From IMG/VR virus record IMGVR_UViG_2778261256_000005, positions 1 through 34,588 of that record: a stretch of 34,588 bases of DNA; one strand, given 5' to 3'. The number at the start of each line of letters is the position of its first letter. The stretch's first letter is position 1. A program made the translations under genes and the position numbers. Under the pieces are notes generated by a model. That model did no database searches. It was given only the letters and a program-made list of their open reading frames with translations, and was not told the DNA's origin. Source of the DNA: a virus. Taxonomy: Duplodnaviria > Heunggongvirae > Uroviricota > Caudoviricetes. Below are positions 6,240 through 34,588 of the stretch, piece after piece.

Positions 6240-7427
6240 ATGCGTGTCAATAAGTCCACAGAGCATTCCCGACATCCGCAAAAAATGTTAACATCCATAA
6301 AAACACCAAGCGTAATTATTATAATGAAATATATTTTTGAATACGGACTTTATCTCAGCATACTTATAGCGACAATATATGTCACTTCTAAGTTATTGGG
6401 TATTACACCTGCAAAACATAAATACGCCTCGCTTGATGGCTTACGTGGAATTTGTGCAGCAATGGTTGCTGTATTCCATCTTTACTGGAGAGCCGGAGGA
6501 GAATCAGATATATACTGGTCTCTTGAGTACATTACACTCAGCAATGTAAAACGCGCCATATATCTAACAGGAGAGTTATCTGTTGGGGTCTTTTTTATGC
6601 TGTCTGCTTTTTTATTTTTCAAAAAGGCACTAGCGGACTCCTTCGATGTAAAAAGCTTTGCAATTTCACGATTCATGCGAATTTACCCACCTGTAGTTGT
6701 TCTTTTATTTATAATATATATTGCAACATTTATCATGAATCCGGATAACCATACTCCAGTATCGCAATGGTTTATATCTTCATTACCATTTATATTCAAT
6801 CCGCCTGGCGCTAACATCAATGGTGTATCGCTCCAGATTGCCACATCTGGTGTGTTCTGGACGTTAGTCTGGGAATTACGCCTATACCTTGCAATTCCAT
6901 TTTTATATCTGATAATGAAAAACATCAAATATAAAGAAGCATTTGTTATTTTTTTAATGGGATGTGTTTTATTATTCAAGTATTTTATAAACAATGAACA
7001 ACACCTGAGTTATATAATGTATTTCCTTGCAGGATTTCTTGTCGCTACAATCAAGAGCAACAAGCGCCCATCAGATATAATCTGCGCTTTATTATTATTC
7101 GCAGCCATATATTTTACTCGACATGCTTACAACACTACAACTCCGCTTTATATGTTTATTGTTTTCTACACAATAAAGTGCGGATGTGATTACTTTGGCT
7201 TACTTACATCCCTGCCTGTAACTATGCTGGGAACCTGCAGTTTCTCCCTTTATTTAGTTCATGGGATAACTCAAACAGTATCTAAACATTATTTATATAG
7301 TGCAGGAAACTATGTTTGGCAGATTTGTGCAATTATTGCGGCAGGTATCATTGCGCCGGTTATGTACAAATATGTCGAAAGTCGCAGCATCATACATAAG
7401 CGTCCTCAACTTCAGATTGCAAAGTAG
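6240..7427 (+). CDS. Acyltransferase family 3 integral membrane protein (Oac/OafA-like, putative surface polysaccharide O-acetyltransferase)
   Basis: Strongly AT-rich ORF; multi-pass hydrophobic protein with LDGLRGICAAMVAVFHL, FFMLSAFL, RFMRIYPP and SFSLYLVH motifs typical of acyltransferase-3 family; start uncertain (ATG 6240, 6285 or 6324, none with a strong SD). Confidence 0.7.
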   Translation: MRVNKSTEHSRHPQKMLTSIKTPSVIIIMKYIFEYGLYLSILIATIYVTSKLLGITPAKHKYASLDGLRGICAAMVAVFHLYWRAGGESDIYWSLEYITLSNVKRAIYLTGELSVGVFFMLSAFLFFKKALADSFDVKSFAISRFMRIYPPVVVLLFIIYIATFIMNPDNHTPVSQWFISSLPFIFNPPGANINGVSLQIATSGVFWTLVWELRLYLAIPFLYLIMKNIKYKEAFVIFLMGCVLLFKYFINNEQHLSYIMYFLAGFLVATIKSNKRPSDIICALLLFAAIYFTRHAYNTTTPLYMFIVFYTIKCGCDYFGLLTSLPVTMLGTCSFSLYLVHGITQTVSKHYLYSAGNYVWQICAIIAAGIIAPVMYKYVESRSIIHKRPQLQIAK

Positions 7428-15321: not shown

Positions 15322-15647
15322 AAATCCACCTGATATGAAAGCGTGCCAAAATCGTATGTGCTCGCGGTCACCCACAGCCGTTTCTGGCTTTCTTCACTGA
15401 TTTCCACCGTTCCCGGCACAATGCGCTCATCGTTTTCAACCAGTAATTCCAGTTGTGTAAAAATATCTGCCCTCAGTGTCGGACTGCGTTCCGCAATTAA
15501 TTGCGTGGCTAATCCGCTCTCAATAATGGCGTGAATAATGTCCTGCCCGATACTTTTTCGGTTATTGCATAATTCAGGCTCATTACCGGCATTTAATGAG
15601 AAGTCACCATTCTCAATAAGCAGGTCAATATAAAGAATCTCACTCAC
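15318..15647 (-). CDS. Putative baseplate wedge protein (gpW/gp25-like position), 109 aa
   Basis: Small acidic protein between tape measure and J-like gene; ATGA overlap with tape measure stop. Confidence 0.4.
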   Translation of the reverse strand: MSEILYIDLLIENGDFSLNAGNEPELCNNRKSIGQDIIHAIIESGLATQLIAERSPTLRADIFTQLELLVENDERIVPGTVEISEESQKRLWVTASTYDFGTLSYQVDL

Positions 15648-17611
15648 GCATTAAGCTCCTGCCATTCCATTAGCTGGGAGGGTGAAAGCGCTTCTTTAGT
15701 ATGAAAATGCACTTCACCAATTTTACGGCTGTTATCCGTTACTGATTTAGAATTACTGCTAATTGTTTTACTGATACCACCTTTATCAACGCCTTTTAAT
15801 TCACCGCCAGTTGAAAGGGTATTCGTTGTCAGTGCCGGTTGAGATTCGTTCGCCAGTGAAATATCGACGCCCGGAATTTTATTGAGTTTTCCGACAATCC
15901 AGTTCCACGATTTCAGGAACCCGCCTTTGATGGTCTGCCAGACGTTATCAAACAGGGAAACAATCCCGCTGGCCATGCCGCTTAACGCCTGTGACGGTGA
16001 AAACCCGGTCAGCAGCGCAATAAAGCTGTTCCAGCCGTCCGTGATCCATTGCCACGCAGCGGAAAACACGCCGGCAAGCCATTCCACCACACCAGCCACG
16101 GCGGTAAACGCTGCCGTATTCATCACCGCCGCTTTCACATCATCCCAGTGTTTAATCAGCAGATAACACCCGGCTGCCAGCAGAGCAATCGCCCCGATAA
16201 CCAGCAGAACCGGCCAGCTCATCAGGTTGATGCCAATACCGGCCATAATCGCCGCCATGCGCACGGCCAGCAGCGTACCCCGCAGGAATTTCAGCGTCAG
16301 GTTCCACGCCACAACAGCCTTTGAGGTAATCCAGACAGTGGCCGCGTAAATCTTCGTGACCAGCGTCAGGGCGCTCCAGAGTCCCTTCAGACCCACCAGG
16401 ATAAATTTTGAGACGCCCATGACAATATTTGTCACCGCGCCCGCTGCCGCCACACCAAACAGCGCAAGCTGCACGTAACCAATCACCCGCGCAATATTGG
16501 GAAACATCTGCATCCAGCGTCCGAACGTCTGCCCCATATCGGCCAGGCGGTTCAGGACCGGGTACAAAACCGGGATCAACGTCAGTCCGATCACCGTCTG
16601 AATGGCTTTAAGGATTTGTACAAAGCGATCCCACGGCTTGACCAGCTTCCCGGCCATCTCCTGTGTACGCTTCAGCCCGTCAGAGCCGCCCAGTTCGGTG
16701 ATATTACGCTGCAGTAACGCCACATTGCCGTACAGGTGTTTTATCACCGCTGAACTGTCACCAAATGCCGCATCCAGCTCCGCCTGGGCTTTCAGGTTCC
16801 CTTCCAGGCTTTTGCCGTATTTGCCCTGCAGCTTGATCAGCATTTCAGGCATGGACAGCATTTTGCCGGTGGAGTCCGTGAAGGACAGCCCCAGCTTTTT
16901 AGCTCCCTCCATCGCGCCGGTCATGAAGCCTTCGTAAGCGCTACTGGCTTCTGTTCCCAGCGTACGATTTAGCTGTCCCAGCACCGCCAGCTGTTCATCC
17001 AGCCCGACGCCGTAGTTAGTCCCGACACCTCGCGCCCCTTCCATCAGGTCTTTGATGGTACCCATTTCGGTACCGAAGACCTTGCGCATATACACCATTT
17101 TCCCCGCCAGTTGCTCAGCGAACTGGACTTTACCCAGCCGCGCCGCATCGGCGGAAAAGTTACCGTACATCTGCCCCATGAACTCCGCCGTGTCGGCGGA
17201 TGTGGATTTCAGGGCAAATGCCAGCGTATTAGCGACCTTCGTCACTTTCGGCAGCTCGCTGGCGGTAAGGCCGGCAATGGAAGCGTTAATGTTCTCTGTG
17301 GATTTGACGAACTCCACCGCGCTGGCACCGTAGGTCATGCTGAACCGGAGCGCGTCACGCTGTACTGTCTTTAATGCCTGATTATCAATCCCTTTTGCGG
17401 CGGCATCATTCAGCGCGTCGTACATTTCGATAGCCGGCGATAACGCGCCTTTTATGGCCATCCCCGTACCGGCCAGCCCCAGCACGCCGCCGCCAATCTG
17501 CGAAAAGGCCGCTTTTGATTTTTCCGCAAAGCCGGTGACGCTGCCCTGCGCCTGTTTTAACGGGCGCGTCAGCTTATCAATCAGGCTTAATGTAAAATCT
17601 AACTGTTTCAT
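15644..17611 (-). CDS. Tail tape measure protein
   Basis: 655 aa, Ala/Gly-rich with hydrophobic C-terminal segments; follows frameshifted chaperone gene. Confidence 0.8.
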   Translation of the reverse strand: MKQLDFTLSLIDKLTRPLKQAQGSVTGFAEKSKAAFSQIGGGVLGLAGTGMAIKGALSPAIEMYDALNDAAAKGIDNQALKTVQRDALRFSMTYGASAVEFVKSTENINASIAGLTASELPKVTKVANTLAFALKSTSADTAEFMGQMYGNFSADAARLGKVQFAEQLAGKMVYMRKVFGTEMGTIKDLMEGARGVGTNYGVGLDEQLAVLGQLNRTLGTEASSAYEGFMTGAMEGAKKLGLSFTDSTGKMLSMPEMLIKLQGKYGKSLEGNLKAQAELDAAFGDSSAVIKHLYGNVALLQRNITELGGSDGLKRTQEMAGKLVKPWDRFVQILKAIQTVIGLTLIPVLYPVLNRLADMGQTFGRWMQMFPNIARVIGYVQLALFGVAAAGAVTNIVMGVSKFILVGLKGLWSALTLVTKIYAATVWITSKAVVAWNLTLKFLRGTLLAVRMAAIMAGIGINLMSWPVLLVIGAIALLAAGCYLLIKHWDDVKAAVMNTAAFTAVAGVVEWLAGVFSAAWQWITDGWNSFIALLTGFSPSQALSGMASGIVSLFDNVWQTIKGGFLKSWNWIVGKLNKIPGVDISLANESQPALTTNTLSTGGELKGVDKGGISKTISSNSKSVTDNSRKIGEVHFHTKEALSPSQLMEWQELNA

Positions 17612-17808
17612 TCCGTGCCTTTAAATGCAGTGCTGATTCCGTTAGCAACCGCTATTCGCATATTTTCCCAGTGGCGATTATCCAGCCAGATAGCAGCGGA
17701 AATATCATCCACGGAATCCTGACCGTGTGGTAAATAATGGCGACGCAAAATTAAATACTGTTCGAGTCCGTTCTGTTCAATTGCCCGGACTCGTTTTGTC
17801 AGTTTTTT
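17608..17808 (-). other. Programmed -1 frameshift extension of the tail assembly chaperone (E+E-prime-like)
   Basis: Slippery site A_AAA_AAC (minus strand, 17802-17808) at last two codons; -1 frame is open for 64 codons and ends with TGA overlapping the tape measure ATG (gaATGAaa). Confidence 0.7.
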
Positions 17809-18056
17809 ACTTCAATTTCCAGTTCTGGCGCATAAAGCTCATTCACTTTTCCGGCAAGCTGGAGCGCTGCACCCGGACGTTTCAGAATGTCTTCCAGCGC
17901 TTCTTTACTTTCCGTTGCCACAATGCGTACAAGATAATTGTGCGCGGGTGCCACTTTATTATCCATCGCCATTTCGTTGATGAACTTATTATAAGCGGTC
18001 TGATTCGGTTCAAAGGTAATTTCTTTTTTGCATACAACCAGGTTAATTTTTTCCAT
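17799..18056 (-). CDS. Tail assembly chaperone (gpE-like), 85 aa
   Basis: Small ORF immediately upstream of tape measure ending with slippery heptamer A_AAA_AAC. Confidence 0.7.
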   Translation of the reverse strand: MEKINLVVCKKEITFEPNQTAYNKFINEMAMDNKVAPAHNYLVRIVATESKEALEDILKRPGAALQLAGKVNELYAPELEIEVKN

Positions 18057-18342
18057 AAATAACTTTCTCTCTTAAATTAATTTCATCAACAAGCGCGTTA
18101 TGCCGTGCAGCACACTGCCCGTATAACTCCAGATAAAGTGTCAGTAATTCCGCCGCGTCTTTTCCCTGCGTTCCACTCAGGCGCGGCAGCTGCGTGACGC
18201 ATTTAGTTTTCAGGTTTTCCTGATAACGTACGTTCGGTACTGGTGACGGCGTCGTTGTACATGCGGACAAAGTCATCAGACAGACACTTATTGGTAAATA
18301 CCGGCTTAACCACTTCCGTGCGAATTTCACGCGGTGGCGCAT
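18043..18342 (-). CDS. Outer-membrane spanin (Rz1-like lipoprotein), overlapping i-spanin
   Basis: Signal peptide with lipobox LSAC followed by proline-rich CTTTPSPVPN; overlaps 18203-18342 of i-spanin gene in another frame. Confidence 0.7.
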   Translation of the reverse strand: MRHRVKFARKWLSRYLPISVCLMTLSACTTTPSPVPNVRYQENLKTKCVTQLPRLSGTQGKDAAELLTLYLELYGQCAARHNALVDEINLREKVIYGKN

Positions 18343-18535
18343 TTTTCAGTGCCTCCAGTTTATCTTCCAGCCGGCGACCAGATGAACCGGCAATTTCAGC
18401 CAGTTGTTCCCCGGTCGCGGTGACCGCTTTTGAGACAGTCAGATCAATACTGTCCCGCTGCCAGCCGGCCGTTTTCCAGCCGGCTATAAATGCCAGAGCA
18501 AGGGTGAATAACCAGCCTGACACGACGCGATCCAT
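18203..18535 (-). CDS. Inner-membrane spanin (Rz-like)
   Basis: N-terminal TMD (WLFTLALAFIAGW) followed by charged helical region; TGATG overlap with endolysin. Confidence 0.65.
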   Translation of the reverse strand: MDRVVSGWLFTLALAFIAGWKTAGWQRDSIDLTVSKAVTATGEQLAEIAGSSGRRLEDKLEALKNAPPREIRTEVVKPVFTNKCLSDDFVRMYNDAVTSTERTLSGKPEN

Positions 18536-18876
18536 CAGCGCACCCCGTTATGTTCCAGGCTGAAATGATTACCATCAGGGCGGGATTTGAAGCGACCGCC
18601 CCATGAACCACCCAGCGATTCCCAGTATTCGCCCAGTGGCAGATAATCTTCCGTTCGGGTTTTGTATTCCCCCTTCACGAACAGATTAAAATCCACGGCC
18701 AGACGCTGTGTGTGCAGGCTGTTGGAAATGCCGCTGCCTTTCTTCGCATTCAGTGCAGCCTGTTCCGGAGTGCGGTATGCTTCACCAAACGTCAGCCACA
18801 TACCGTTGGCATTGGCATACTGGATCAACAAAGCAATCATTGACGTAAAACGCTGTTGTTTCTCGCTCAGTGTCAT
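18535..18876 (-). CDS. Endolysin, peptidase M15 family (L-alanyl-D-glutamate peptidase-like)
   Basis: 113 aa with His/Asp zinc-ligand pattern (SLHTQRLAVDF ... DGNHFSLEH). Confidence 0.7.
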   Translation of the reverse strand: MTLSEKQQRFTSMIALLIQYANANGMWLTFGEAYRTPEQAALNAKKGSGISNSLHTQRLAVDFNLFVKGEYKTRTEDYLPLGEYWESLGGSWGGRFKSRPDGNHFSLEHNGVR

Positions 18877-19169
18877 TTCCCTGCCCCTTTATCAAAAATC
18901 CCTGTAAAACCCCGCTTACGCAGCCAGGCTTCCACCGCATTCTGCCCCAGAATACCCAGCGCCGAGCCAAATCCGGCCAGCGCGAGCGGATGAATATCCG
19001 GTACAAAGTACAGCGCCACCCCGGCAATCAGTGACAGCCCGCTGCCCACAATGACACGCCCCGCCACCAGACGAAGGGTGATCGGTTCATCACTGTTGAG
19101 CAATTTACCCAGCGCAATCAGCGCCCCCATGACTGCCAGTGCAATGAACCCCTTTTCGTACTCCTGCAT
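18873..19169 (-). CDS. Putative holin (small 3-TMD membrane protein)
   Basis: 98 aa, three hydrophobic segments, charged C-terminus, directly upstream of endolysin (ATGA overlap). Confidence 0.6.
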   Translation of the reverse strand: MQEYEKGFIALAVMGALIALGKLLNSDEPITLRLVAGRVIVGSGLSLIAGVALYFVPDIHPLALAGFGSALGILGQNAVEAWLRKRGFTGIFDKGAGK

Positions 19170-19181
19170 CCCTGCTGCCTC

Positions 19182-19637
19182 TTATCCAATCAGGTTTTCC
19201 GTGGCTTCCGCTTCCAGATACGGCACACCGTTGATGTTGACGAACTTCGGACTTGTCACGAAGTATTTGATTTTATGCGTGGACACACTGCCACCCTTCG
19301 GATCACCATCCAGAACGCTGTTGAGCTGCAGCTTGTTACCAAAGGTTTCCACCTTCATTTCTTCTCTGCCGGCTTTGGCGTAAAAAAGGAAGTCAACCGG
19401 AGGAATGCCACGCCATGACCCCGCTGAACGGGCTTTGGCTGTCAGAACCTGCAGCACTTTGGAACTGACTTCAATTTCACCCTCGGCAGCAACATCACCG
19501 TCCACATACCCGTCAGGGACACCGCGCGTCTGTGCCGCCGCTCTGTTATCGGTGATATCCAGCGAAATTTTTTCAATGTGGATCAGGTCGCCGTCCAGAT
19601 AGATGTCAAAGGACATCCCTGAAATACGTTTGGTCAT
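19182..19637 (-). CDS. Tail tube protein (gpFII-like position)
   Basis: 151 aa immediately after sheath-like gene; size and position fit P2 FII. Confidence 0.55.
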   Translation of the reverse strand: MTKRISGMSFDIYLDGDLIHIEKISLDITDNRAAAQTRGVPDGYVDGDVAAEGEIEVSSKVLQVLTAKARSAGSWRGIPPVDFLFYAKAGREEMKVETFGNKLQLNSVLDGDPKGGSVSTHKIKYFVTSPKFVNINGVPYLEAEATENLIG

Positions 19638-20761
19638 GCGCTGGCCTCCAGACTTGCATCCAGTAACAGACTGATGGTGATCTGCAGCGGTACTTCATAC
19701 GTACGCACCACAATGTAAATATCCACCGCCTTTTTGTTCTTCCAGACAATGGTCACGTCACCGTCCTGTGGTGGTTTCACCTCGCCCGGAAATGACACGC
19801 CGTTGATGCTGGCCGCAGTGGACATTTCCCGCAACGGACGGGCAAACAGCGTCTGGTGTGCGGCAATACTGCCCGGTGTACTGTTAAGTGAGCGATCGGC
19901 AATCTTACCGATGGCCAGCAGACGAACGCGGCGTGCAGCCTTATCCACAATACGCAGCGTCTCGATGGACTGGTAATCACCGCCCTCAACGTCCAGCGTG
20001 CGCCCGTCAGCCCAGTAAAAGCCGTCATAGTCCGGATACCACATCGGCACGCTGTAGCGCTGTGCTTCCAGCGCCTGAAGGGTCGCCAGTTCCAGCGTTT
20101 CGCCGGCACCATCTTTCGGCAGTTCATCACTGCCCGTACTCAGCAACGCGCCTGTTTTCACCCGTGCCGGACTGTCGGCGATGGTGACCGCACGGTTGCA
20201 GAGACGACCAGCCAGCACGCCCGGTTCATTCCCCCAGAGACGGGGTACCAGCTGTACCGCTTTTTCCGCAATACCTTCCTGAAGGGTGGACAGACGCACC
20301 AGATAATCCGCCTGGGCTTCACCCTGCTGCATCCCCTGAACCGCCAGAATGAACCACACCCAGCGCCCGTATTTAGCAATCAGTTCAGATCGCAGCGTTG
20401 CCGCCTGGTTAATCTGCGCTTTCGCGGCCACATCATCAGACAGCACCACACCTTCCACCGAACAGGAGACCTGTGCGGCCTTAACGGCATCCACCCATGC
20501 CCCCGGCTCGCTGTCTGCGGCCAGCACATGAACAAATCCCCACCAGTTCTGGCCGGCGTTCGCCAGTGCGGCCAGAACATCACTTTTTAACGGGCTGTCA
20601 CCCTCGCCCAGCAGCGCATCAAAATCACTCTGTGCGTTAACTGCCAGCGTCTTACCTACATTTTTGGTTCCCGTGCCGATAAACAGCAGCGTGCGCTCCA
20701 CTTCCGTGGTTTCACCCAGCAGCTGATTTACCTGGTTTACGGTCACAATTGGCCAGGTCAT
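19634..20761 (-). CDS. Tail sheath protein (gpFI-like position)
   Basis: 375 aa; size and position relative to tube/chaperone/tape measure. Confidence 0.55.
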   Translation of the reverse strand: MTWPIVTVNQVNQLLGETTEVERTLLFIGTGTKNVGKTLAVNAQSDFDALLGEGDSPLKSDVLAALANAGQNWWGFVHVLAADSEPGAWVDAVKAAQVSCSVEGVVLSDDVAAKAQINQAATLRSELIAKYGRWVWFILAVQGMQQGEAQADYLVRLSTLQEGIAEKAVQLVPRLWGNEPGVLAGRLCNRAVTIADSPARVKTGALLSTGSDELPKDGAGETLELATLQALEAQRYSVPMWYPDYDGFYWADGRTLDVEGGDYQSIETLRIVDKAARRVRLLAIGKIADRSLNSTPGSIAAHQTLFARPLREMSTAASINGVSFPGEVKPPQDGDVTIVWKNKKAVDIYIVVRTYEVPLQITISLLLDASLEASA

Positions 20762-34114: not shown

Positions 34115-34511
34115 ATGTCGATTAAGAAGCTTGATGATGGTCGTTTTGAAGTGGACGTTAGACCGCGCGGAACCTCAGGAAGAAGGATTCGACGCAAATT
34201 TGACAGAAAGGCGGAAGCACAGGCATACGAGCGGTATGTACTGACAAACTTTCACGATAAAGAATGGCAGGATAAACCCGCAGACAGGAGGCTTGTATCC
34301 GAGTTAATTTCTTTATGGTGGAGCTACCATGGAAAGAATCACAACTATGGTGACTCATATAAAAAGCGTTTGGAAAAAATCAACCGAGAAATGGCGGAAC
34401 CCAGAGTGTACGAGCTTACCCGCAACTTTCTGATGAAATATCGTGCAGAACGACTTCATAGTGGAGTATCTGCTGGCACGGTAAACAGGGATTTCTGTTC
34501 CATGTCCAGCA
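34115..34511 (+). pseudogene. P2-like tyrosine integrase, N-terminal ~132 codons only, interrupted by IS10
   Basis: MSIKKLDDGRFEVDVRPRGTSGRRIRRKFDRK matches remembered P2 Int N-terminus (MAIKKLDDGRYEVDIRP...RIRRKFDKK); GGAGGG SD; reading frame runs into IS10 end at 34512 and stops at 34549; catalytic domain absent from window. Confidence 0.8.
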
Positions 34512-34588
34512 CTGATGAATCCCCTAATGATTTTGGTAAAAATCATTAAGTTAAGGTGGATACACATCTTGTCATATGATCAAATGGT
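34512..34588 (+). mobile_element. IS10 (Tn10-type) outside end, first 77 bp (element continues beyond window)
   Basis: ctgatgaatcccctaatgattttggtaaaaatcattaagttaaggtggatacacatcttgtcatatgatcaaatggt matches the remembered IS10 outside terminus containing the pIN/pOUT region. Confidence 0.8.

Follow-up and report, generated by a model that had tools for sequence, protein, structure and literature searches.

We propose that a programmed -1 ribosomal frameshift at the heptamer A_AAA_AAC makes a second, extended form of a tail assembly chaperone in an E. coli prophage, and on comparative grounds we consider this very probable. The window, by which we mean the whole 34,588-nt stretch of viral DNA that was analysed, holds a short chaperone gene directly upstream of an extension in the -1 frame. 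A preliminary description of this DNA had already read the locus as a programmed frameshift, and that reading fits the gene order, the Pfam assignments, the lack of a conserved start codon for the extension, the purifying selection in the -1 frame and the family-wide presence of the heptamer. On this proposal most ribosomes would stop at UGA after 85 codons and release the short chaperone. The minority that slip back one base on A_AAA_AAC would go on with CUG and translate 64 more codons in total, and the resulting 149-aa fusion would end where the tape measure gene begins.

The chaperone gene, its extension and their surroundings

The 0-frame chaperone gene occupies 18056..17799 on the minus strand and encodes, by its open reading frame and translation, 85 aa plus TGA, the short 'G-like' product. 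Its 3' end reads GAA ATT GAA GTA AAA AAC TGA. The slippery heptamer A_AAA_AAC (17808..17802, minus strand) is read in the X_XXY_YYZ phase and takes up the final two sense codons, AAA AAC (K84 and N85), just as had been described. The 0-frame stop, TGA at 17801..17799 (minus strand), adjoins the 3' end of the heptamer and is followed by C, so the context is UGA-C and the codon is a possible 'shifty stop' stimulator. A TGA at 17814..17812 (minus strand) ends the -1 frame upstream and so leaves an overlap with the 0 frame of just 13 nt (17811..17799), which contains the heptamer; this is the sole region in which both frames are open and a shift can succeed. AAAAAAC occurs 13 times in the window where 8.7 copies are expected, and the heptamer alone is thus no more than chance would supply; what exceeds chance is its position, phase and conservation.

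The -1 extension, putatively a 'T-like' domain (17802..17608, minus strand), comprises 64 sense codons, from CTG (17802..17800) to GAA (17613..17611), and a TGA (17610..17608) that overlaps the ATG of the tape measure gene (17611..17609) within an ATGA (17611..17608). Both its length and this overlap agree with the earlier account. The predicted fusion joins residues 1-85 to the extension (149 aa; junction …EIEVKN-LTKRVRAIEQ…), and the sequence across its junction is IEVKNLTKRVRAIE. Pfam assigns the chaperone to PF10963 Phage_TAC_10, the HP1 orf26 type (E=2.8e-35, 120.8 bits against a cut-off of 25.7), with profile positions 1-82 of 82 matched by fusion residues 4-85. The extension matches PF21830 DUF6890 (E=7.6e-25, 86.8 bits against a cut-off of 23.6, fusion residues 104-147), a profile of 44 positions that spans only the C-terminal two thirds of the 64 codons. 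PHROGs places both halves in families of unknown function (phrog_7050 for the extension), NCBIfam returned no matching family, and the PDB sequence search gave no meaningful match (best E=0.59). An AlphaFold2 model of the 149-aa fusion, built on a 38-row alignment, was too poor to inform on a T-like domain (mean pLDDT 44.8, pTM 0.27).

We read the locus as the tail assembly chaperone locus of a contractile-tail module of HP1 type, carried by an E. coli prophage. Its minus strand encodes, in this order, sheath, tube, holin, endolysin, spanins, chaperone, extension and tape measure, and the tube and chaperone genes are separated by the holin-endolysin-spanin cassette, as they are in HP1. By Pfam, the nearby tube gene, at 19182..19637, is of the HP1 Orf24 type and the sheath is DUF2586, and the tape measure gene (17611..15644, minus strand) carries both a match to PF10145 PhageMin_Tail (E=1.8e-21) and the corresponding RefSeq annotation. 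The head and regulatory genes of the prophage are P2-like (GPO scaffold, P2-family capsid, ogr/Delta and Cox). Across the 1-kb query, 13 complete E. coli genomes match the locus at 100% identity and Escherichia phage ESSI2_ev239 (Peduoviridae, Evevirus) matches it at 98%. No promoter-like sites were found in 17300..18400, and the only terminator-like site in that interval, at 17727..17710, falls within chance expectation. An Rfam scan of 17500..18150 returned only a sub-threshold chance match on the opposite strand (ybhL leader, 20.5 bits against 50). The plus-strand open reading frame 17727..18062 (111 aa), antisense to the chaperone, was rejected as a gene because it is stop-free in only 18 of 38 distinct relatives.

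The slip site in related phages and its candidate stimulators

The slip site is conserved throughout the family. Five chaperone queries (the E. coli window, Pseudomonas phi3, Vibrio PV94, Haemophilus HP1 and Aeromonas phiO18P) seeded a set of 279 distinct related sequences, and 278 of them carry an in-phase A_AAA_AAN within the 0/-1 overlap, ending in C, A or G. Closer to the prophage, GTA AAA AAC followed by a stop is present at all 38 distinct loci; the stop is exchanged between TGA and TAA among them, and leucine (CTG or CTA) is retained in the -1 frame. Across 15 diverse phages the only invariant chaperone residues are F15 and K84, the latter encoded within the heptamer. The stop codon follows the heptamer directly in 170/170 distinct sequences with A_AAA_AAC and in 31/32 with A_AAA_AAA (201/202 together), and the base after the stop is C in 154 of 171 A_AAA_AAC sequences. 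Where the heptamer is A_AAA_AAG, which is intrinsically strong, the stop lies seven codons later (76/76 distinct sequences).

The site had been called classic, which is accurate for eukaryotic ribosomes, on which A_AAA_AAC is a high-efficiency heptamer, and not for E. coli, where it is a low-efficiency one (PMC4066793; PMC5009743), though proven in IS1. The yield of fusion could therefore be very low. Since the heptamer slips poorly in E. coli, the adjacent stop in its weak UGA-C context and a downstream hairpin probably lift the rate to a useful level. The candidate hairpin (17793..17763, minus strand) begins 8 nt past the heptamer and consists of an 8-bp stem, CGAGUCCG/CGGACUCG, in which 17793..17786 pairs with 17770..17763 around a 15-nt loop; it is present in both the minimum free energy and the centroid structures (z=-2.3). 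It has no U-tract directly after its stem. Among 30 distinct close relatives the stem is paired in 240 of 240 cells, and control registers with the partners shifted by 1-3 columns pair in just 5-39% of cells. Covariation amounts to one compensatory change from G-C to A-U, carried by 11 sequences; three other pairs vary solely by G-U wobble, and the third position of a Leu CTC codon in the 3' arm (extension nt 39) is invariant in 57 distinct sequences. This conservation in the close clade is confounded, because the stem is also coding sequence and the sequences share ancestry. The downstream structure raised in the preliminary description has a candidate in the prophage and its close relatives, and its register is not kept in distant ones (a Yersinia phage, HP1 and F108). 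Across the family, RNA downstream of the site is more stable than control segments in the AAC and AAA clades and not in the AAG clade. Inspection by eye for a Shine-Dalgarno-like upstream stimulator (GGAG/AGGA-type, 6-17 nt before the heptamer) revealed none in GAACTGGAAATTGAAGT, nor was such a motif seen in the homologous sequence of HP1, CCAGAAATTCAAATTACCGT.

Taken together, the heptamers, stops and structures might form a composite, tunable signal in which the weak heptamers (…AAC and …AAA) are combined with an adjacent stop and downstream structure in a stop-assisted -1 slip ('shifty stop'), a tentative idea about HP1-type phages that we regard as possible rather than probable. Under such a model AAC would occupy the P site during the slip, with the stop codon waiting in the A site.

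The same extended protein could in principle arise by slippage of RNA polymerase on the A6 run: a single inserted A in some transcripts would let normal translation read …V-K-K-L-T… into the extension. The site is a homopolymer, A6 in the prophage and A7 in the Vibrio clade, and AAAAAAA runs have been noted as slippage-prone (PMC4066793). Transcriptional slippage nevertheless leaves unexplained both the stop that adjoins the weak heptamers in 201/202 sequences and the stable structure downstream, features that fit ribosome pausing. Six As are, moreover, a short run for efficient slippage by E. coli RNA polymerase. A_AAA_AAC is itself a demonstrated ribosomal -1 site in IS1, and we consider an origin in transcription very improbable.

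Selection on the extension and the position of its start

Strong purifying selection acts on the extension in the -1 frame, as judged from its pattern of substitution. In an alignment of 57 distinct sequences the variable columns at codon positions 1, 2 and 3 number 22, 18 and 57, and 79% of single-base codon differences are synonymous when read in the -1 frame, compared with 15% and 8% in the other two. Among 16 diverse HP1-like phages, with chaperone identities of 32-100%, the alignment of the extension is gap-free starting at the codon next to the heptamer, where amino-acid conservation also begins. Reading frame was scored in 14 phages, and in each of them the extension lies in the -1 frame. 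No start codon is conserved among the 16 aligned phages: the first in-frame ATG, GTG or TTG falls at codon 4, 12, 15, 16, 18, 26, 37, 39 or 47, depending on the phage, and the earliest possible start is as late as codon 37 in SMHB1, codon 39 in the Yersinia phage and codon 47 in ESSI-2.

These observations bear directly on the way in which the extension is currently annotated. RefSeq names the chaperone 'putative phage tail assembly chaperone' and gives the extension as a separate 'DUF6890 family protein', a 46-aa CDS at 17748..17608 on the minus strand with a TTG start at 17748. Taken at face value, this would be an independent small gene translated from its own TTG with no frameshift. The TTG is indeed present, PGAP and several phage records give free-standing open reading frames at this place, and Pfam keeps DUF6890 as a family of its own. 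Such a gene would, however, lack a conserved start codon (the first candidate ranging from codon 4 to 47), and both the conservation and the synonymous excess continue over the 18 codons upstream of the TTG, up to the heptamer. Database entries for this reading frame differ in their starts and vary in length from 45 to 71 aa, some beginning at a CTG directly after the heptamer, and no Shine-Dalgarno-like sequence was seen by eye ahead of 17748. Translation from a separate start is accordingly very unlikely in our estimation, and in our judgement the 46-aa RefSeq CDS is an artefact of annotation that represents the 3' portion of the frameshift extension.

That the arrangement is fortuitous or decayed, with the extension unexpressed in a possibly defective prophage, is barely credible: AAAAAAC is not over-represented in the window, but the arrangement is found in 278/279 distinct relatives that include the isolated infectious phages HP1, K139, phiO18P and ESSI-2, the -1 frame is clearly under purifying selection, and the 1-kb query is identical in 13 complete E. 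coli genomes.

Known frameshift systems and significance for the family

A programmed -1 frameshift is the expected, textbook kind of arrangement for the chaperone of a long-tailed phage, and the prophage is best understood beside its nearest counterparts. The closest are orf26 of Haemophilus phage HP1 and its relatives in HP1-like Peduoviridae. HP1 has 44% identity to the chaperone and 48% to the extension, the same order of lysis cassette, chaperone and tape measure, the same GTA AAA AAC with an immediate stop, and an extension in the same -1 frame; the HP1 record itself carries no frameshift annotation. Only one related phage record has such an annotation: the entry for the homologous gene of Pseudoalteromonas phage ACA1, gp36/gp36a, is a joined CDS that bears the description 'projected programmed frameshift analogous to P2'. 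ACA1 differs from the prophage in its slip site, which is A_AAA_AAA, and in its stop, which lies seven codons further on. In our literature search the genome papers of ACA1 and SMHB1 contained no discussion of a chaperone frameshift, and the search returned neither a mention of 'DUF6890' nor any direct mass-spectrometric, reporter-based or genetic evidence of the fusion in a Phage_TAC_10 phage. We infer production of the fusion from the comparative evidence above.

The preliminary description likened the locus to G/GT of lambda or E/E+E' of P2, and this comparison is sound for the architecture; with P2 it does not extend to detectable sequence similarity. Both the prophage and P2 belong to the contractile-tailed Peduoviridae. 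In each, a short chaperone gene comes shortly before the tape measure gene, a -1 slip towards the 3' end of the chaperone gene, proposed for the prophage, adds about 57-64 codons, and the end of the extension overlaps the tape measure start. The protein families differ, E+E' being PF10109 Phage_TAC_7 plus PF06528 Phage_P2_GpE and the prophage fusion PF10963 plus PF21830, and a BLASTP comparison of the prophage chaperone and extension with those of P2 (E and E') gave no match even at E<=100. The slip site in P2 is T_TTT_TTG with the 0-frame stop six codons later, in contrast to A_AAA_AAC with an adjacent stop, and P2 has no lysis cassette between its chaperone gene and the tube gene FII, which immediately precedes it.

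The likeness to lambda lies in a -1 slip, encoded between the tail shaft and tape measure genes, that results in a fixed low ratio of extended chaperone. Lambda is a siphovirus and its slip site is G_GGA_AAG. Under the G/GT paradigm both products are required for tail assembly and do not occur in virions. We compared it through a Pfam scan alone, in which the fusion matched only PF10963 and PF21830 and no lambda G or T family. The short domain of the lambda chaperone has the tape measure as its binding partner and the extension has the tube protein, and frameshifting of the G-T kind is conserved widely among long-tailed phages (PMC5009743). Functions in the prophage can be suggested by this analogy: the N-terminal part shared by the two products may bind the tape measure protein, the C-terminal DUF6890 domain encoded in the -1 frame may recruit the tube protein, and the slip rate would set the ratio of the two chaperone forms, as with gpG and gpGT. 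For the heptamer itself the pertinent precedent is insA-insB' of IS1, where A_AAA_AAC is a proven -1 site that yields a low level of fusion protein (PMC4066793). IS1 thus shares with the prophage the same low-efficiency heptamer in an enterobacterial host; it differs in being an unrelated transposase system with no established stimulator, whereas the prophage has the adjacent stop and the hairpin.

Genome databases have missed the frameshift in this prophage as well as in some 280 distinct related sequences. In RefSeq (PGAP), PHROGs and Pfam the -1 extension figures as a small orphan protein (phrog_7050, of unknown function, in PHROGs), and no database entry of the extension reading frame is fused to PF10963. 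The evidence says that DUF6890 is probably the frameshift-encoded C-terminal domain of the HP1-type chaperone and the likely counterpart of lambda T and P2 E'. Re-annotation as a joined CDS would mend many prophage records from Enterobacterales, Vibrio, Aeromonas, Pasteurellaceae and Pseudomonas. The family also brings together three heptamers (…AAC, …AAA and …AAG), with or without an adjacent stop and hairpin, for a comparison made by nature, and it could serve to test whether stop codons stimulate -1 slippage in bacteria. If the stop-assisted slip is true, the ratio of short to long chaperone would depend on the release-factor activity of the host.

Slip-site anatomy and conservation

Every gene around the chaperone is encoded on the minus strand of the window. 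The chaperone ORF (18056..17799, 85 codons) ends GAA ATT GAA GTA AAA AAC TGA, and the heptamer A_AAA_AAC (17808..17802), in X_XXY_YYZ phase, spans its final two sense codons. Because a TGA upstream of the heptamer (17814..17812) closes the -1 frame, the two frames overlap by only 13 nt (17811..17799), with the heptamer in mid-overlap. After a slip the next codon is CUG (17802..17800), and the extension (17802..17608) has exactly 64 sense codons before it closes at TGA 17610..17608. The TG of this stop (17610..17609) also belongs to the start codon (ATG, 17611..17609) of the tape measure gene, which has 655 codons. The preliminary description, which had claimed the in-phase heptamer, the 64-codon extension and the overlap of its stop with the tape measure start, was right in coordinates and in every detail. 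The heptamer by itself is not unusual (13 copies of AAAAAAC in the window, both strands, against 8.7 expected); its weight lies in position, phase and conservation.

GTA AAA AAC followed by a stop is found in 38/38 distinct close loci, where TGA and TAA are swapped and Leu (CUG/CUA) is kept in the -1 frame. When 15 diverse chaperones are aligned, F15 and K84 are the sole invariant residues, with V83 nearly invariant; conservation within the gene is therefore highest at the heptamer. Four more scans of viral contigs, seeded with Pseudomonas, Vibrio, Haemophilus and Aeromonas proteins, were pooled with the earlier loci (333 loci, 279 distinct sequences), and an in-phase heptamer lies inside the overlap in 278 of the 279. 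The 0-frame stop comes right after the heptamer in 170/170 distinct sequences with A_AAA_AAC and in 31 of the 32 with A_AAA_AAA (seven codons on in the remaining one); with A_AAA_AAG it is seven codons on in 76/76.

A programmed -1 ribosomal frameshift at A_AAA_AAC is the best-supported reading of these sequences. Unshifted translation would yield the 85-aa chaperone, and a -1 slip a minor 149-aa fusion. In E. coli, ribosomes slip poorly on A_AAA_AAC, yet IS1 has been proven to use this heptamer, which is also frequent among IS elements that require little fusion protein (PMC4066793, PMC5009743). The lambda G:GT ratio is ~30:1 (PMC5009743), and by analogy a low fusion yield would meet the needs of a G:GT-type system. 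To judge by lambda, one of the two domains would bind the tape measure and the other would recruit the tube. A literature search found no experimental data on the Phage_TAC_10 chaperone family, and structure prediction of the fusion gave a pLDDT of 44.8, too low to inform on its fold.

Candidate stimulatory elements

A downstream stimulatory RNA structure had been raised as something to check, and a candidate 8-bp stem (CGAGUCCG/CGGACUCG, minus strand, 17793..17786 pairing with 17770..17763) does begin 8 nt past the heptamer, appearing in both the MFE and centroid folds (z=-2.3). Standard pairing holds in 240/240 stem cells across 30 distinct close relatives, and drops to 5-39% of cells if the 3' partners are offset by 1-3 columns. 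One stem pair changes from G-C to A-U in 11 sequences, three vary to G-U wobble only, the loop varies freely, and extension nt 39, the synonymous third base of a Leu CTC codon in the 3' arm, never varies. This conservation is suggestive of a stimulatory role rather than conclusive, given that the stem lies in coding sequence and the relatives share ancestry. In the distant relatives compared the hairpin register is not kept, although strong hairpins occur at an equal distance from the heptamer in several Vibrio and Salinivibrio phages.

Family-wide, the 42 nt beginning 4 nt past the heptamer were folded against control windows of the same loci. Mean MFE downstream was -11.8 in the AAC clade (controls -6.7; median rank 0.09), -15.9 in the AAA clade (-6.7; 0.04) and -12.0 in the AAG clade (-10.3; 0.37), an excess of structure in the first two and none such in the third. 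The adjacent stop and a hairpin may assist weak heptamers, and the strong AAG may need neither, although the pattern of heptamer, stop and structure is confounded by phylogeny; the AAG sequences seem to form one clade, having been recovered with the Pseudomonas phage phi3 seed. The base 3' of the stop is C in 154/171 AAC sequences. At the RF2 frameshift site a C after the stop disfavours termination (PMC5009743); here, however, a conserved Thr codon of the -1 frame has this base as its second position, and the two explanations are therefore inseparable. No Shine-Dalgarno-like element was seen by eye upstream of the heptamer in the window or HP1, an Rfam scan of the locus region returned nothing above threshold, and promoter and terminator signals around the locus did not rise above chance level.

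RNA polymerase slippage on the A6 run would also join the two frames, with a K-K-L junction instead of the ribosomal K-N-L. We consider it very unlikely, as it explains neither the adjacent stop nor the downstream structure.

Coding character of the extension

Among 57 distinct 64-codon extensions of close relatives, the variable columns at codon positions 1/2/3 number 22/18/57, and single-base codon differences are synonymous in 79% of cases in the -1 frame vs 15% and 8% in the other two. On the strength of this codon-position pattern and synonymous excess, we take the -1 frame to be a real coding frame. By tblastn the extension lies immediately 3' of the chaperone, in the -1 frame every time, in HP1, HP2, K139, Kappa, F108, phiO18P, SI7, PV94, SMHB1, phi3 and others.

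The DUF6890 ORF could instead initiate independently, and databases do hold it as a separate entry. The lengths of the NCBI entries, however, range over 45-71 aa and their starts differ, some lying at the CUG right after the heptamer. Translated from the heptamer's last base, the extensions of 16 phages whose chaperones share 32-100% identity align from the very first codon with zero internal gaps, whereas the first in-frame ATG/GTG/TTG falls anywhere from codon 4 to codon 47, so that no start is conserved. The -1-frame synonymous excess likewise contradicts independent initiation. Among the matches listed, no protein combined PF10963 with PF21830 and no chaperone match exceeded 99 aa. Entry from the upstream gene can account for these findings, whereas independent initiation, most improbable on these grounds, cannot. 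A chance or decayed arrangement is ruled out for practical purposes by site conservation and by selection on the -1 frame.

Genomic setting, known systems and annotation

Fusion residues 4-85 match PF10963 (Phage_TAC_10, E=2.8e-35) and residues 104-147 match PF21830 (DUF6890, E=7.6e-25); the gene downstream matches PF10145 (tape measure). Upstream, Pfam identifies an HP1 Orf24-type tube gene (19182..19637) and a DUF2586 sheath gene (19634..20761), both minus. As in HP1, a lysis cassette (18043-19169, minus) separates tube from chaperone: a holin (18873..19169), an M15 endolysin (18535..18876), an Rz-like spanin ORF (18203..18535; named from related phage records, no Pfam match) and an embedded ORF (18043..18342) with a weak, sub-threshold Rz1/LysC match (23.5 bits vs a cut-off of 27), whose 3' end runs 14 nt into the start of the chaperone gene. 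A plus-strand ORF antisense to the chaperone (17727..18062, 111 aa) is stop-free in only 18/38 distinct relatives and was rejected as a gene.

Thirteen complete E. coli genomes carry a prophage that matches a 1-kb query across the locus (17400..18400) at 100% identity, and Escherichia phage ESSI2_ev239 (Peduoviridae, Evevirus) matches it at 98%; the copy in E. coli 2018-18.25PC adjoins raiA-bamD-rluD-yfiH-clpB. The prophage is a mosaic of P2-type head and regulatory genes (GPO scaffold, P2-family capsid, gpM, ogr/Delta, Cox) and an HP1-type tail module (sheath, tube, chaperone, tape measure). The integrase (~34115-34588) is truncated by the window end. An acyltransferase-family gene on the opposite strand (6240-7427, plus), between the last tail gene and raiA, may be prophage cargo (a 'moron'), e.g. 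for O antigen modification.

The frameshift interpretation of the preliminary description is supported, and its likening of the locus to lambda G/GT or P2 E/E+E' holds for architecture and logic. At the sequence level, BLASTP of the window proteins against P2 E/E' gave no similarity, and their Pfam scan matched no lambda family. In P2 (NC_001895) the slip site is T_TTT_TTG, the 0-frame stop lies 6 codons past it rather than adjacent, the 57-codon extension overlaps the gene T start, and the families are Phage_TAC_7 and Phage_P2_GpE. The locus would thus work like both systems while standing, given the BLASTP result, outside the P2 family at the sequence level; its domain matches place it in the HP1 orf26 (Phage_TAC_10) family. 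Among the records of that family compared, only Pseudoalteromonas phage ACA1 has the shift annotated (gp36a, a 'projected programmed frameshift analogous to P2'); HP1, K139, F108, phiO18P, SI7, phi3, ESSI-2 and the RefSeq E. coli genomes do not. The frameshift type is very well known, and this locus is a so far unannotated instance.

Annotations in two related phage records also look doubtful. In Yersinia phage vB_YenM_324 (NC_070917; L003 1-192) RefSeq labels the gene directly upstream of the tube 'topoisomerase', probably a misannotation, since the sheath gene occupies that position in the related ESSI2_ev239. Vibrio phage K139 orf30 (L087 626-1204), annotated as 192 aa and ending at heptamer-plus-stop, appears to merge upstream sequence with a chaperone of ~85 aa, and its start is therefore probably mis-called.

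RefSeq gives the chaperone and a separate 46-aa 'DUF6890 family protein' from TTG 17748 (17608-17748, minus), with no frameshift. In Pfam (PF21830) and PHROGs (PHROG 7050) the extension stands alone as a family with no assigned function, and the two profiles (44 and 47 positions) span no more than the C-terminal two thirds of its 64 codons. DUF6890/phrog_7050 can now be identified as a frameshift-encoded chaperone domain, and the family pattern linking heptamer strength, adjacent stop and downstream structure is open to experimental test.
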